Shown here piece after piece: positions 20,252 to 36,613 of a DNA stretch of 64,000 bases. The stretch lies in the NCBI GenBank assembly GCA_963810495.1, contig CAWENP010000019.1, positions 8,710 to 72,709 of the forward strand. The letters run 5' to 3'. The translations under genes and the position numbers were made by a program. Position 1 is the first letter of the stretch, and every line of letters begins with the position of its first letter. The DNA comes from an uncultured delta proteobacterium. Its GTDB lineage: Bacteria > Desulfobacterota > Binatia > Binatales > Binataceae. The notes under the pieces are model-generated. The model had not been told where the DNA came from, ran no database searches, and worked only from the letters and a program-made list of their open reading frames with translations.

Positions 20252-21850
20252 CTAAACTTTCTTGCGGCGCTTGGAGAGATAATCGACCAGCATGTATTCG
20301 CCGAGATGGTCGGGGCGCGTGTAGAGCGCGCGGCCGCGATTGATCTGCGTCATCTTTTCGACGAACGCGCGCAGGCTCGGCGAGTCGTCGAGCATGAAGG
20401 TGTTGATCGTGATGCCCTTGCGGGTGACGCGCTCGACTTCCTTCAGCGTCTCCTGCGCCGCGCGCATGCTGATGCCGCCGAACGAAAGCGGCCATTCGCA
20501 GTACAAGCGCTTGTTGAGAAAGTACGCGGTCGGCTGGCCGTCGGTTATCACGATGATGTGCTGGTTGCGCGAGGGATGACGCCCGAGCAGATCCGAAGCC
20601 AGGCGCAGCCCGTCCTGCAAATTGGTGAACGGGTCGCCCATGTTCCACGACGCCTCGGGCAGGTCCTTTAACTTCAACTCGACAGCGCGGGTGAAAAACC
20701 CGACGATCGAAAAAAAATCGCGCGGGAACTTCGAGCGGATCAGCGTCTCCATCGCCATCGCGACCTTCTTGGCCGCCGCGAACCGCCCCTCCCAGCTCAT
20801 CGACCACGACATGTCGAGGCACAGCACGGTCGACGACGAACTCGCGTAGTCGTTTTCGTAGACCTCGAAGTCGCCGGGTTCCAGCTTAAGCGGCACACCG
20901 GGCCGCCGCGTGAGCGCGTGCTTGAGCGTCGCGACCAGGTTCAAATTGAGCGGATCGCCGAAGCTGTAGCTCTTGGTCTCGTCGGGGCGAATCTCGGTTA
21001 TCCCGCGATGGTCAGTCGCGTGCGATCCGCCGCGGTCCTTGAGCAGGCCCTGGTAGATGTCGCGCAGTGCGAGCTGGCCGATCCGGCGCACGCCCTTGGG
21101 CGAGAGCGCCATGTGCTCGCCCTTCTGCACCATGTAGCCGCCCTCCTCGAGCAGCAGCATCACCTGGCGCAGGTTGTTAAAATCCTGCTCGGCCTGCTGG
21201 CCCAGCATCTCGCGCAGATCTTCCATCGAGATGTTGTCGAAGTTGCCCGACATCAGATCCTGCTCGAGCTGCTTCATCCGATCCATCTCGCGCATCAGCT
21301 CGAGCGCCTGCTGGTAGTTCAGGCTCTTGGGGCCGTGGAACAGATGCTGGTTGCGCTCGCGGAAATTCTCGAGGTCGCGGATGTTCTCGTACTCCTTGAG
21401 CAGGGCCTCGAAATCGGCGCGCGCCCGGGCGTCCTCGAACTCATGGCTTTCGAGCTTGCGAATCGCCTCCGAGAGCCGCCGGGGCATCCGCTGCAATTCG
21501 CGCAGCTTCTCGTCGAGCTTGCCGCCCGGCTGCTCAGCGCTTAGCCGCTCCAGCGTGGCGCGCTCGCGATCGAGGATGTCCTGGAGCCGCCGTTCCATCT
21601 CGCTCAGCGCGTCCTTGAGATTGAATTCGCGGTAGCGCTGGCGCATCTCCTGGCGCAATTGTTCGAGAAATTCTTCCAGCCCCGCCACGCGCGAGCCGTC
21701 GAAGTCCATCCCCTGCCGCGTCATCCAGTCCATCGCCTGGCGCACGTCGTCGGTATAGGAGAGGAACTCGGCCAGCTTCTCGAACACCTTGTCGGCGTCG
21801 AGCTTGAGCTTCTGGCTGCCGTCCCACGCGGTGTAGCGGATTTCGATCAT
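20252..21850 (-). CDS. VWA-domain protein (ChlD-like partner of the upstream AAA+ ATPase)
   Basis: ATG 21850 (MIEIRYTAWDGSQ). C-terminal VWA with MIDAS-like VLCLDMSWSM and IIVITDGQPT. Confidence 0.75.
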   Translation of the reverse strand: MIEIRYTAWDGSQKLKLDADKVFEKLAEFLSYTDDVRQAMDWMTRQGMDFDGSRVAGLEEFLEQLRQEMRQRYREFNLKDALSEMERRLQDILDRERATLERLSAEQPGGKLDEKLRELQRMPRRLSEAIRKLESHEFEDARARADFEALLKEYENIRDLENFRERNQHLFHGPKSLNYQQALELMREMDRMKQLEQDLMSGNFDNISMEDLREMLGQQAEQDFNNLRQVMLLLEEGGYMVQKGEHMALSPKGVRRIGQLALRDIYQGLLKDRGGSHATDHRGITEIRPDETKSYSFGDPLNLNLVATLKHALTRRPGVPLKLEPGDFEVYENDYASSSSTVLCLDMSWSMSWEGRFAAAKKVAMAMETLIRSKFPRDFFSIVGFFTRAVELKLKDLPEASWNMGDPFTNLQDGLRLASDLLGRHPSRNQHIIVITDGQPTAYFLNKRLYCEWPLSFGGISMRAAQETLKEVERVTRKGITINTFMLDDSPSLRAFVEKMTQINRGRALYTRPDHLGEYMLVDYLSKRRKKV

Positions 21851-32190: not shown

Positions 32191-34098
32191 TTAGCGGCGG
32201 AACATCCGTTCGATAAGGCCGCGGCCCCATTGGATATGGACCGGGCGGCCGTGCGGGCAATTGGTCTTGAACTCGGTACGGTCGAGTTCTTCGAGCAGCG
32301 CCGAAATCTCGGGCTCCCGGAGCACGCGGCCCACCCGCACCGAGCCGTGGCAGGCAAGCTGCTTGAGCAGCTCCTCGAACGCCGTGGCGCCGCCTGACCG
32401 AAAACCGTCCTCGCCCATCGCGTCGATCATCTCGACCAGCAGCCGCGCACCGCCGTCGGCGCCGAAGACCGCGGGCGCGCCCTTAAGCAGCAGCGTCGCC
32501 GCGCCGAACGGCTCGAGCTCGAAGCCCATCGCGCGAAACTCGCCGAGCGCCTGATGGACCTGCGGGGCGCGCGCCGGACTGAGCTCGATCGGCACCGGCG
32601 TGAGCATCGCCTGTACCCGGATACCGCCCGCGCGCAGTTCGGCGCGGAGCTTCTCGAAGGTGACACGCTCGTGCGCCGCGTGCTGGTCGACCAGGATAAG
32701 GCCGTCGTCGCCCTCGAGTGCGATGTAGCCGGCGAAGAGCTGGCCGACGACGCGCAGCCGCGAGTAAATCGGGATTTGTTTCTCGGGTATCTGCTTGTCA
32801 CCGGGATGGCCCAGCGGAATGACCTGCGCGCCGCCATTAATTGCCGCCGCCGGCGCGAGCGCTCCGGCGGAGTCATCGCTTGCGGGCGCGTCGTAGAGCG
32901 CGGCGACCTCGGCCGCTGTGCTCGAACTCCATTTGAGACCCGGCGCGCCGAGACCCAGCGCGCGTTGCTCGGCGCGCGCGAGCGTCGGCGCGTCGGGCAC
33001 CAGGCGCAGCGTCGGCGCGGCGTCTGAAGCTGCGATCAGCGCGCCGACAGGCTCGGGACGCTGCGCCACCGCGGACGGCGCGGTGGACGCCGCACCCTCG
33101 ATCGTTTGGTCGGCGAGCCGTTCGCGCAACGCATGGTACACCGCCTCGAAAACCGCGCCCGAGTTGCGAAAGCGCACCTCGGTCTTCATCGGATGAACGT
33201 TGACGTCGACGTCCTCGGGACGCATCTCGACGAACACGGCCGTGGCAGGATAGCGGCCGCGCGGAATCAGCGTGTCGTAGGCCTGCTGGACCGCGCGCTG
33301 GAGCACGCGGTCGCGCACCGAGCGCCGGTTGACGAAAGTGAAGACCATCCGCGGCGTCGGGTAGGAGTCCTGGCTGATAGTGGCGAGGCCGAAGACGCGC
33401 GCGCCGGCGCGCTGGGAGTCGAAGTGCAGCATGCGGGAAGCGACCTTCGCTCCGTGAAGCTGGCGCATCCGCTCCAGCACCGAGGCCGCGCGCGAAAGGT
33501 CGTAAACGACGCGCCCCTCGGCGACGAGCTTGAAGGCGACGCGCCAATGCGCGATCGCGAGACGCCCAATCACCTCGGCCGCGGCGCCCTGCTCGGTCGC
33601 GAGCGTCTTCAGGAACTTAAGCCGCGCCGGGGTGTTGAAAAAAAGCTCGCGGACTTCGATTCGGGTGCCGGGCGCGATGGCGCTTTCGCGCGTGAGCGAG
33701 ATTTCGCCGCCGTCGGCGACGATTTCGACGCCCGCGAGATCGGCGGGCCGCCGCGTGACTATCCGAAGGCGCGCGACGCTCGCGATCGAGGCCAGCGCCT
33801 CGCCGCGAAAGCCCATCGTGCGGATCGCCGCGAGGTCGGCGGCGTCGCGAATCTTGGAGGTCGCATGGCGGCGCAGCGAGAGGATCGCGTCCTCGCGGCC
33901 CATCCCGCAGCCGTCGTCGCTGACCGCGATAAGGCCCGTGCCGCCGCGCTCGATCTCGACGCTTATCGAGCGGGCGCCGGCGTCGAGCGAGTTCTCCACC
34001 AGCTCCTTGAGCGCCGAGGCCGGTCGCTCGACGACCTCGCCCGCCGCGATCTGGCTCGCCACCTGCTCGGGGAGAATATGGATCAGCCGTTCCGCCAT
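32191..34098 (-). CDS. mutL: DNA mismatch repair protein MutL
   Basis: GHKL ATPase N-terminus (IAAGEVVERPASALKELVENSLDAGA, DDGCGM, GFRGEAL). C-terminal endonuclease-type DQHAAHERV and CPHGRP. Confidence 0.95.
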   Translation of the reverse strand: MAERLIHILPEQVASQIAAGEVVERPASALKELVENSLDAGARSISVEIERGGTGLIAVSDDGCGMGREDAILSLRRHATSKIRDAADLAAIRTMGFRGEALASIASVARLRIVTRRPADLAGVEIVADGGEISLTRESAIAPGTRIEVRELFFNTPARLKFLKTLATEQGAAAEVIGRLAIAHWRVAFKLVAEGRVVYDLSRAASVLERMRQLHGAKVASRMLHFDSQRAGARVFGLATISQDSYPTPRMVFTFVNRRSVRDRVLQRAVQQAYDTLIPRGRYPATAVFVEMRPEDVDVNVHPMKTEVRFRNSGAVFEAVYHALRERLADQTIEGAASTAPSAVAQRPEPVGALIAASDAAPTLRLVPDAPTLARAEQRALGLGAPGLKWSSSTAAEVAALYDAPASDDSAGALAPAAAINGGAQVIPLGHPGDKQIPEKQIPIYSRLRVVGQLFAGYIALEGDDGLILVDQHAAHERVTFEKLRAELRAGGIRVQAMLTPVPIELSPARAPQVHQALGEFRAMGFELEPFGAATLLLKGAPAVFGADGGARLLVEMIDAMGEDGFRSGGATAFEELLKQLACHGSVRVGRVLREPEISALLEELDRTEFKTNCPHGRPVHIQWGRGLIERMFRR

Positions 34099-35095: not shown

Positions 35096-35335
35096 ATGCG
35101 AACCTGTGAGATTTGCGGCAAACGCCCCTCAGTCGGCAACAACGTAAGCCACGCCAACAATAAGACCAAGCGCCGATGGCAGCCCAACCTGCAGGAAGTG
35201 CGCACGGCGGCCGGCGGCGGGGTCAAACGAATCCTGGTTTGCACGCGATGCATCCGCAGCGGCCGGGTCACCAAGGTCGCTCCCGGCGCGCAGGCGCGGC
35301 ACGACGCGGCAGCCGCCGCCGGCAAACGGTCCTGA
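35096..35335 (+). CDS. rpmB: 50S ribosomal protein L28
   Basis: [33 protein letters not shown]. Confidence 0.9.
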
Positions 35336-35351
35336 CGGATCAACCGGGGTC

Positions 35352-35714
35352 CTATCGGACCAGCCCAAGCAGCGGGAGCATCCGCTCCGGCGGACGCGCA
35401 ATCACCGCCTTGGCGTCCTTGACGACCACCGGACGCTGCATCAGCTCCGGATGCTTCAGCAACAGCGCGACCACGGCCTCGGCTAAGACGTAGTCCGCGG
35501 ACTTCAGCCGCAGCCCTTCGAAACGGCGATCCTTGCGCACCAGTTCGGCGGGCGGCGTATCGAGCATTGCCACGATGCGCTCGAGCGTGGTGCGGTGGAG
35601 CGGAGTTTTAAGATATTCGACGATGTCGAACTCGACACCTTGTGCGCGCAGCATTTCCAGCGCGCCGCGTGAATTCCCTCAGCCAGGGTTGTGATAGAGA
35701 GTCACCTTTTTCAT
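35352..35714 (-). CDS. arsC: ArsC-family (arsenate reductase/Spx fold) protein with in-frame TGA at the catalytic Cys position: candidate selenoprotein
   Basis: The same frame as track ORF 35352..35654 continues upstream to ATG 35714: MKKVTLYHNPG-TGA(35681..35679)-GNSRGALEMLRAQGVEFDIVEYL. This matches the YHNPxCGxSRxxLEM N-terminus of ArsC with TGA in the Cys column. Confidence 0.6.
35644..35665 (-). promoter_or_regulatory. candidate bacterial SECIS hairpin
   Basis: On the mRNA, 13 nt after the UGA: GCGCGC-UGGAAAUGCU-GCGCGC (6-bp perfect stem, 10-nt loop with G at loop position 2). Confidence 0.45.
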
Positions 35715-35869
35715 CGTGTGGAGGCCCCCCCGATGCGCTTTTCCTGCGCGATGCTTTGATTCAACATAGGTCCAATATAAGTGCTAGACCCATGCTTCAT
35801 CAGATAGCAAACGGACGGTACGTAAAGTCCGGGCGAAAGTTTCAGGACGACGACGATGATGATTCGAAG

Positions 35870-36613
35870 ATGCGCTGGCTGAATATGATCGCGGCGAAGG
35901 TTGCGAGAGCGGCGTTCGTTATCGCCTACGTCACGATAGCGCTGACGGCAATGCTCGCGATCGGCGCCGGGGCGGCGAATGCGTTACCGCATTCCGGCGA
36001 GCCCTCCGACCTGGCGCATCGCGAGGTGCCGGCGATGGCCTCGCCAGGGGCCGCCACCTGGCAGATGTCCACCCCGGTGACGGGAGTGCTGGCCGCGCCT
36101 GAGGCGGGAGGACCGCTGGCCGGCCATGAGTTGCATTTCCAGGACCGTATCAGCGGGAACATGTACACCTTGCGAACCGGGGCCAACGGCGCATTTTCGA
36201 TCATGCTGCCGCAGGGCGTTTACGATCTGCGCGGGATGCACGGCGCCGTGATCGCGCGCGGAGTGGTAGTCGGGCAAAGCCCGGTCAACCTCGGCCAGGT
36301 GAGTCCGCCCGCGCCGTACGACGTGTGGCGCCTGTTCGAGCGGCAGGAAATCGGCCAGGCGATCGTGAAGAGTCCGGCGCCCGCGACCGCCTACGTGCCG
36401 AGTCCCGGAGAAGCGCCGCAGGCGATATCGGTCACGCCGATGACCAGCCCTCAGGTGATGGGAGGGGGGCCCAATGGGCAGCCGCTCGCGCCGGCGGAGG
36501 TCATGCCGGCTCAAATACAGGAGCAAACCGAAATTCCCTCGGGTGCCGAGGCGCCGGCCCCCGGCATGCCTCCCGCGCAGGACATGGCGCCCGCGCCCAA
36601 GGGTGGCTACTGA
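35870..36613 (+). CDS. membrane-anchored/secreted protein with carboxypeptidase-regulatory-like (Ig-like) domain and Pro/Ala-rich tail
   Basis: ATG 35870, TM/signal IAAKVARAAFVIAYVTIALTAMLAIGAGAANA, then LRTGANGAFSIMLPQGVYDL-type beta-sandwich signature. The start is uncertain. Confidence 0.45.
   Translation: MRWLNMIAAKVARAAFVIAYVTIALTAMLAIGAGAANALPHSGEPSDLAHREVPAMASPGAATWQMSTPVTGVLAAPEAGGPLAGHELHFQDRISGNMYTLRTGANGAFSIMLPQGVYDLRGMHGAVIARGVVVGQSPVNLGQVSPPAPYDVWRLFERQEIGQAIVKSPAPATAYVPSPGEAPQAISVTPMTSPQVMGGGPNGQPLAPAEVMPAQIQEQTEIPSGAEAPAPGMPPAQDMAPAPKGGY

Follow-up and report, generated by a model that had tools for sequence, protein, structure and literature searches.

The window (the whole 64,000-nucleotide stretch of DNA analyzed here) carries, on its minus strand, a 120-codon reading frame extending from an ATG at 35714..35712 to a TAG at 35354..35352, with a TGA at 35681..35679 as its sole internal stop codon. 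The product read from this frame, MKKVTLYHNPG-U-GNSRGALEMLRAQG...GLVR, has 119 residues; translation around the recoded codon gives MKKVTLYHNPG, the TGA, and then GNSRGALEMLRAQGVEFDIVEYL.... The mechanically generated list of ORFs contains the 100-amino-acid piece 35352..35654 alone, with the start MLRAQGVEFDIVEYL (Met21, ATG 35654). The initial annotation held that this piece is part of a longer frame beginning at ATG 35714, and that gene callers shorten the gene. Retranslation of the frame, which revealed no other stop, bore out the first point, and the second is borne out by the databases, which carry a 100-amino-acid “ArsC/Spx/MgsR family protein”. Orthologues in NCBI, JGI and ENA are recorded as “ArsC/Spx/MgsR family protein” or “arsenate reductase (glutaredoxin)” of 99-102 amino acids, systematically cut at the predicted selenocysteine (Sec) codon; the entries from the protein search that are cut in this way include P0044, P0079, P0088 and most of P0006-P0120. 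The features of the locus are as follows.

35725..35731, minus strand: G-run (GGGGGGG) 10 nt 5' of the ATG, a possible Shine-Dalgarno-like site judging from the sequence.
35712..35714, minus strand: start codon ATG, at the same position in 24/24 TGA-type genes and at the point at which substitution periodicity starts.
35352..35714, minus strand: full-length arsC-type coding sequence, with predicted Sec12 at the in-frame TGA (translation, TIGR00014, alignment with R773 ArsC).
35679..35681, minus strand: in-frame TGA, predicted Sec at residue 12, with U-G-N-S giving a UxxS motif (Cys12 column, relatives, assemblies).
35644..35665, minus strand: hairpin 1, GCGCGC / UGGAAAUGCU / GCGCGC, with the stem from 13 nt and the loop from 19 nt after the UGA.
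35622..35639, minus strand: hairpin 2, GGUGUCG / AGUU / CGACAUC, 7 bp, with its tetraloop at 35632..35629 (conservation, RNAalifold, covariation).
35352..35354, minus strand: true stop codon TAG (sequence and translation).

The gene is convergent with rpmB (ribosomal protein L28, 35096..35335, plus strand), with 16 nt between the two stop codons (35335..35352), and this convergence is conserved in four ENA contigs (L171-L174). The neighboring genes encode or correspond to mutL, an SDR, rpmB, a hypothetical protein, a Crp-family regulator, a glyoxalase-family protein, miaA, accA and pheA, among others. No arsR, arsB, acr3 or other ars genes were found within 10 kb on either side, so the assignment of arsenate as the substrate is based on homology only. 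Purine-rich runs resembling GGAGG or GGGG are found 5' of the ATG in most of the TGA-type orthologues. The 5' end of arsC is overlapped on the opposite strand by a 323-amino-acid mechanical ORF (35642..36613, plus strand). The real gene within this ORF likely begins around 35867, and its product is a hypothetical protein that is hydrophobic at its N-terminus. This hypothetical protein gave a weak CarboxypepD_reg match (20 bits, for a cutoff of 32.3), and is annotated as 273 amino acids long by the ENA callers.

Profile searches were run with the TGA translated as Cys. The protein matched the Pfam ArsC model (PF03960) above the gathering score (41.9 bits for a cutoff of 24, E value of 1.3e-10, residues 7-112). 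The match to TIGR00014, the equivalog model for glutaredoxin-type arsenate reductases, was full-length (residues 4-115 against positions 1-113 of the 114 in the model; 100.7 bits, E value of 7.1e-29), but its score fell about 5 bits short of the cutoff of 106.05. Spx-type models were weakly matched (TIGR01617, 42.5 bits for a cutoff of 75), and NF041106 was absent from the NCBIfam matches of the window protein. The best matches among solved structures were arsenate reductases. R773 ArsC (PDB 1I9D, MSNITIYHNPACGTSRNTLEMIRNSG...) was collinear with the window protein, with residues 1-116 aligned on residues 1-116 (E value of 1.3e-17). The initial annotation had placed the TGA exactly on the catalytic Cys12 of R773 ArsC. 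Both the sequence that it gave for this enzyme and the position of Cys12 were correct, and in the 1I9D alignment the TGA column coincides with this residue, with YHNP and G-x-SR conserved on either side. The active-site motif is U12-G-N-S15, that is, UxxS in a protein of the pfam03960/TIGR00014 type. Arg60, Arg94 and Arg107 are also retained (LVR60KD, MQR94P and IAR107P, versus LLR60KN, INR94P and LCR107P in 1I9D); these three residues form the oxyanion-binding catalytic triad of R773 ArsC. Arsenate reduction is suggested by an equivalog match close to the threshold and by a full complement of catalytic residues, rather than by genomic context.

We read the DNA 5' of the annotated start in 49 related loci obtained from collections with one genome per species, mostly metagenome-assembled genomes of Candidatus Binataceae or Binatia. 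The catalytic column was occupied by TGA in 23 of these loci and by TGC or TGT in the other 26, with no other residue observed; alignment with Cys-containing ArsC homologues, a check suggested by the initial annotation, thus pairs the TGA with a Cys codon in more than half of the relatives. The TGA and Cys states were interleaved on a neighbor-joining tree: the Cys forms L007, L013 and L038 were nested inside TGA clades, and the TGA forms L015, L020, L039 and L043 adjoined Cys forms. This interleaving implies that TGA and Cys codons have replaced one another independently on several occasions. Natural Sec/Cys pairs with 85-89% identity were identified, such as the window gene and L007. L007 (10001-10291), which is of the Cys type and 88% identical, has an intact hairpin 2 and a hairpin 1 with one mismatch, and looks like a recent Sec-to-Cys conversion. 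In the window itself, TGA is the terminator of 11 of the 26 confident long ORFs, showing that this codon has not been reassigned genome-wide.

Hairpin 1, proposed as a SECIS element at 35665..35644 in the initial annotation, spans nt 17-38 counted from the U of the UGA. Its folding energy (-11.4 kcal/mol, z -1.71) is unexceptional when considered alone, an equally good fold being obtained for 16 of 200 dinucleotide shuffles. In a fixed register, 84.1% of cells were paired in the TGA genes, versus 43.5% in the Cys genes of Binataceae, and compensatory changes were found at two pairs (L011; L017/L029/L030). The pairing remained at 81.1% when the 3' arm was slid by +2, slipped registers being allowed because the arms are GC repeats. 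The existence of the hairpin and its canonical spacing were upheld, but the comparative support for it was weak: RNAalifold failed to recover it, returning a trivial 4-bp helix including the UGA, and a null model in which the peptide was fixed and synonymous codons were resampled revealed no excess stability in the clade of the window (z = +0.35 for the window). Excess stability with respect to this null model was found in other TGA clades (L010, L011, L017, L020, L029, L030, L034 and L037), with z values from -1.7 to -3.2. The hairpin 1 z-scores of TGA genes did not differ significantly from those of Cys genes (p = 0.13). At the wobble positions of the stem in the clade of the window, mean synonymous-site diversity was 0.056, versus 0.358, a suggestive difference given that only three sites could be scored and that 27% of other sites had equally low values.

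Hairpin 2, which did not feature in the initial annotation, lies 4 nt beyond hairpin 1, at nt 43-60 from the U of the UGA. It folds at -7.9 kcal/mol (z -3.80), and none of 200 shuffles was as good. Its inner four pairs (GUCG/CGAC) are invariant in the 24 TGA genes (the window gene and its 23 relatives), as is the AGUU loop, with the exception of one AGGU (L039). The helix was 98.6% paired in TGA genes and 65.5% paired in Cys genes, with covariation at the next two pairs outward (GC/GU/AU and UA/CG/GC). In the TGA genes, none of 500 shuffles reached the observed pairing or covariation score, in a test uncorrected for phylogenetic relatedness; the corresponding values for the Cys genes were 38/500 for pairing and 132/500 for covariation. 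RNAalifold independently predicted exactly this helix. The exact 12-nt core was present in 23 of the 24 TGA genes versus 3 of 26 Cys genes (Fisher 5e-10, uncorrected for phylogeny).

The core, at fixed spacing, was then used as a pattern (AAYCC-N4-TGH-N42-GTCGAGTTCGAC) in a scan of 185,579 species genomes. At least 119 matches were obtained; among the matches listed, 108 had TGA and 11 had TGY, the latter comprising five that were not arsC, five Cys-type arsC genes and one distant ArsC-family gene. The TGA matches listed came from Binatia, Acidimicrobiia, Latescibacterota, Gemmatimonadota, Planctomycetales, Gaiellales and other taxa. In a set of 113 distinct TGA-type sequences, the three outer stem pairs of hairpin 2, which were unconstrained by the pattern, were paired in 81%, 100% and 96% of cases, with the variants GU/AU/GC and CG/UA/GC. 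In this same set, which covers several phyla, the fixed register of hairpin 1 was 37-70% paired, and a hairpin of some kind was present at nt 8-42 in 99% of sequences. Additional copies of the hairpin 2 core were chance matches; neither TGA of the best of them (L034:17296) is in frame with the ordinary ORF that contains it. We also considered, and rejected, a junction in which a third helix would close off the two hairpins, as this helix displayed no covariation and its 9:66 pair was found in only 35% of sequences.

The published bSECIS consensus specifies a loop of 3-9 nt, a stem of 4-16 bp, a G at loop position 1 or 2, a spacing of 16-37 nt and a minimum free energy (MFE) of -7.5 kcal/mol or below (PMC13188914). 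The spacing (19 nt) and MFE of hairpin 1 are within these limits, and its loop is 10 nt long, for a limit of 9, unless the lone inner G-C pair is counted. When the consensus was read strictly, hairpin 1 passed in 8% of TGA genes and 10% of Cys genes, providing no separation between the two. Hairpin 2 agrees with the consensus in loop, stem, loop G and MFE; its loop starts 46 nt after the UGA, a distance not covered by the published range of 16-37 nt. As in the bSECIS consensus, the structured RNA is part of the coding sequence and follows soon after the UGA, and the 4-nt loop of hairpin 2 has a G in second position followed by a U. The consensus differs in having one stem with an internal loop, whereas the window has two adjacent hairpins, neither agreeing with the consensus on every point. 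Some bacterial SECIS elements are known to lie outside the bSECIS model (PMC13188914). Judging from these sequence comparisons, hairpin 2 is the best-supported candidate for a conserved RNA element at this locus, with better support than hairpin 1. We think that hairpin 2 is more likely to be the element bound by SelB, and that hairpin 1 probably serves as a spacer or helper. A more specific model, in which Sec-type ArsC genes use a non-canonical two-hairpin signal, with GUCG-AGUU-CGAC at 46 nt binding SelB and the variable GC-rich hairpin bridging the gap, is put forward tentatively, as we consider it somewhat less probable than its negation. The nucleotide sequence of the hairpin module is conserved in Binatia, Acidimicrobiia, Latescibacterota, Gemmatimonadota and other taxa, possibly because the gene has spread horizontally along with its SECIS element.

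The Sec-machinery genes, namely selA, selB, selD and the tRNA-Sec gene, are not linked to arsC. No tRNA-Sec was detected in the 64-kb window (ARAGORN, Rfam) or in 49 plus 119 further loci (ARAGORN). Likewise, tblastn searches with E. coli SelA, SelB and SelD (from NC_000913.3) as queries, against 0.89 and then 1.7 Mb, identified no selA, selB or selD in the 64-kb window or in the approximately 1.7 Mb of flanking sequence from related genomes. A scan of the window for a second selenoprotein gene, based on GC3 periodicity, yielded two weak candidates, both of them in-frame TGAs on the plus strand with GC3 periodicity on either side, at 20577..20579 and 32395..32397. The codon at 32395..32397 is antisense to mutL and is likely to be an artefact. 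Nothing else convincing was found when the scan was extended to all loci, with a method insensitive enough to recover only about 7 of the more than 130 arsC genes.

The Sec/Cys pattern among relatives points to Sec as the amino acid inserted. The comparative data demonstrate translation of the codon and the presence of an accompanying RNA element, but not which amino acid is inserted, and the UGA might conceivably be recoded to Cys or another standard amino acid, through a Cys-charged tRNA-Sec-like tRNA acting via SECIS and SelB, or through near-cognate read-through. SECIS-dependent systems with other anticodons can insert Cys. The literature mentions reports of other anticodon types mediating SECIS-dependent UGA recoding. 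Nevertheless, such recoding would be costly, with no obvious advantage over the TGC used by close relatives, the family is listed in several surveys as a Sec/Cys selenoprotein family, and recurrent switching of a position from TGA to a Cys codon or back is the classic signature of a selenoprotein. Insertion of Cys or another standard amino acid is thus improbable, and we retain Sec as the predicted residue 12.

It is even less probable that the true product is the 100-amino-acid protein starting at Met21, with the upstream ATG...TGA stretch untranslated or encoding a tiny leader peptide, even though an ATG is present at 35654 and exactly this ORF is annotated in every database copy. This shorter protein would be missing the fold's first beta-strand and its catalytic loop, as the initial annotation had noted and as alignment with R773 ArsC confirmed. 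The 11 codons upstream, by contrast, have the properties of a coding sequence. The ATG is invariant in 24/24 TGA genes, and the conserved YHNP, shared with Cys-type homologues, is encoded 5' of the TGA. In these 24 genes, pairwise differences in the ten codons from the ATG to the TGA numbered 667, 419 and 1365 at the first, second and third codon positions, respectively, whereas the 30 nt 5' of the ATG displayed no periodicity (1786, 1733 and 1764). The bias of differences toward third positions, together with the invariant ATG, indicates that the codons preceding the TGA are translated and under purifying selection. Furthermore, the internal start used in the annotations is not conserved, as most orthologues have Leu (ALELLRA) instead of Met at residue 21. 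A decaying pseudogene with a nonsense mutation, or a sequencing or assembly error, would be compatible with a single in-frame stop in one sequence, but can be dismissed here, because the TGA occupies the same column in 23 species-level genomes among the 49 related loci, and in 108 of the scan matches listed, from several phyla, with no second disruption in the TGA genes of the related loci, with substitutions indicative of purifying selection on either side (the flanking conservation that the initial annotation had judged unlike random nonsense decay), and with the TGA kept in four independent ENA assemblies (L171-L174), including a strain just 94.4% identical over 409 nt. The same ORF was present on 17 contigs.

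The Sec/Cys pattern, the coding substitutions upstream from the TGA, the intact arginines, the use of TGA as an ordinary stop elsewhere in the window and the independent assemblies provide strong support for the selenocysteine-containing ArsC proposed in the initial annotation. We estimate at about 0.88 the probability that this locus encodes a 119-residue glutaredoxin-type ArsC, with an arsenate reductase fold, that has selenocysteine, inserted at UGA, as its catalytic nucleophile.

“Arsenate reductase (ArsC) 1” (pfam03960/TIGR00014, UxxS) has been described as a predicted selenoprotein family (Zhang and Gladyshev 2008, PMC2398784), and is listed as “Arsenate reductase, COG1393/TIGR00014, UxxS” in reviews from 2022 and 2026 (PMC9312934, PMC13188914). 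ArsC-like selenoproteins had previously been reported in Desulfotalea psychrophila and Desulfuromonas acetoxidans (PMC1794560), and the functions of nearly all such selenoproteins are uncharacterized according to the 2026 review (PMC13188914). These selenoprotein surveys and reviews agree with the statement, in the initial annotation, that ArsC-like selenoproteins had been predicted from metagenomes and were uncharacterized. The window gene shares with this family the same Pfam and NCBIfam models, the UxxS motif, predicted Sec in the column of the catalytic Cys and a large number of Cys homologues, and both are known from sequence alone. It is placed in the family on the basis of this motif and the shared models, the published reference sequence being MBT3519430.1. 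Published examples come mainly from marine metagenomes, whereas the window gene is from Binataceae. No mention of Sec use in Binatia, Binataceae or Binatota was found in the selenoprotein literature searched, so this lineage may be a new host. The window gene therefore appears to be a further member of a known, sequence-predicted selenoprotein family, and its presence would not be unexpected to specialists.

The window protein shares with R773/E. coli ArsC (1I9D, 1J9B) the YHNP-x-[C/U]-G-x-SR loop, Arg60, Arg94 and Arg107, but R773 ArsC has Cys12 and 141 residues, whereas the window protein has a predicted Sec and 119 residues and is encoded outside any arsRBC operon. The UxxC “arsenate reductase-like protein” family (NF041106; ArsC 2/cd03032 in the GOS survey) also has the ArsC/Spx fold and an N-terminal Sec. 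It belongs to an Spx/YffB-like branch, whereas the window protein has the UxxS motif and matches Spx-type models only weakly.

Two groups of TGA-type genes among the scan matches listed differ in other respects. In nine genes of the Latescibacterota/Gemmatimonadota type (L057, L066, L079, L081, L093, L095, L113, L115 and L140), the sequence reads ...DMIHPSSFEKLG..., versus ...ELVRKDRRFEGL... in the window. The equivalent of Arg60 is apparently lacking from these proteins, and Sec is preceded by N or H instead of G. Judging from these sequences, this type may constitute a subfamily with a different substrate pocket. In six genes from Acidimicrobiales (L056, L058, L080, L131, L162 and L166), the N-terminal sequence is PRRLLLVHNP-x-U-GKSRG, and the ATG that is invariant in Binataceae is absent; translation of these genes probably begins at another start or one further upstream.

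According to the mechanism that we propose, SelB carrying Sec-tRNA(Sec) would be recruited at the UGA by structured RNA within the 60 nt of coding sequence that follow. The recoding signal would lie within nt 17-60 and would consist of the two adjacent hairpins. Hairpin 1 would presumably be positioned about where the mRNA enters the ribosome during UGA decoding, on the model of the E. coli SelB-ribosome complex. After Sec insertion, translation would continue to the TAG at 35352. If the chemistry is like that of the homologous R773 ArsC, the position 12 selenolate, beside the Arg60/Arg94/Arg107 oxyanion pocket, would attack arsenate or a similar oxyanion, and the arsenate adduct would be resolved by glutathione and glutaredoxin. 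The analysis shows how the gene is built, its homology and catalytic residues, the distribution of Sec and Cys codons, the translation of the N-terminal codons and the conservation of the RNA; Sec insertion, the SelB-binding hairpin and the substrate are the parts of this explanation that we infer.

The window gene and considerably more than 100 orthologues from Binatia, Acidimicrobiia and other phyla are stored in databases as 100-amino-acid fragments that would be catalytically dead. The Sec/Cys pairs described above would provide a clean system for studying the role of selenium in arsenate reduction, and the occurrence of hairpin 2 at a non-canonical distance from the UGA constitutes a testable lead on the variety of bacterial SECIS elements. 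Corrected annotation would restore a predicted active-site selenoenzyme to these genomes and would mark common soil and marine lineages as selenium users.
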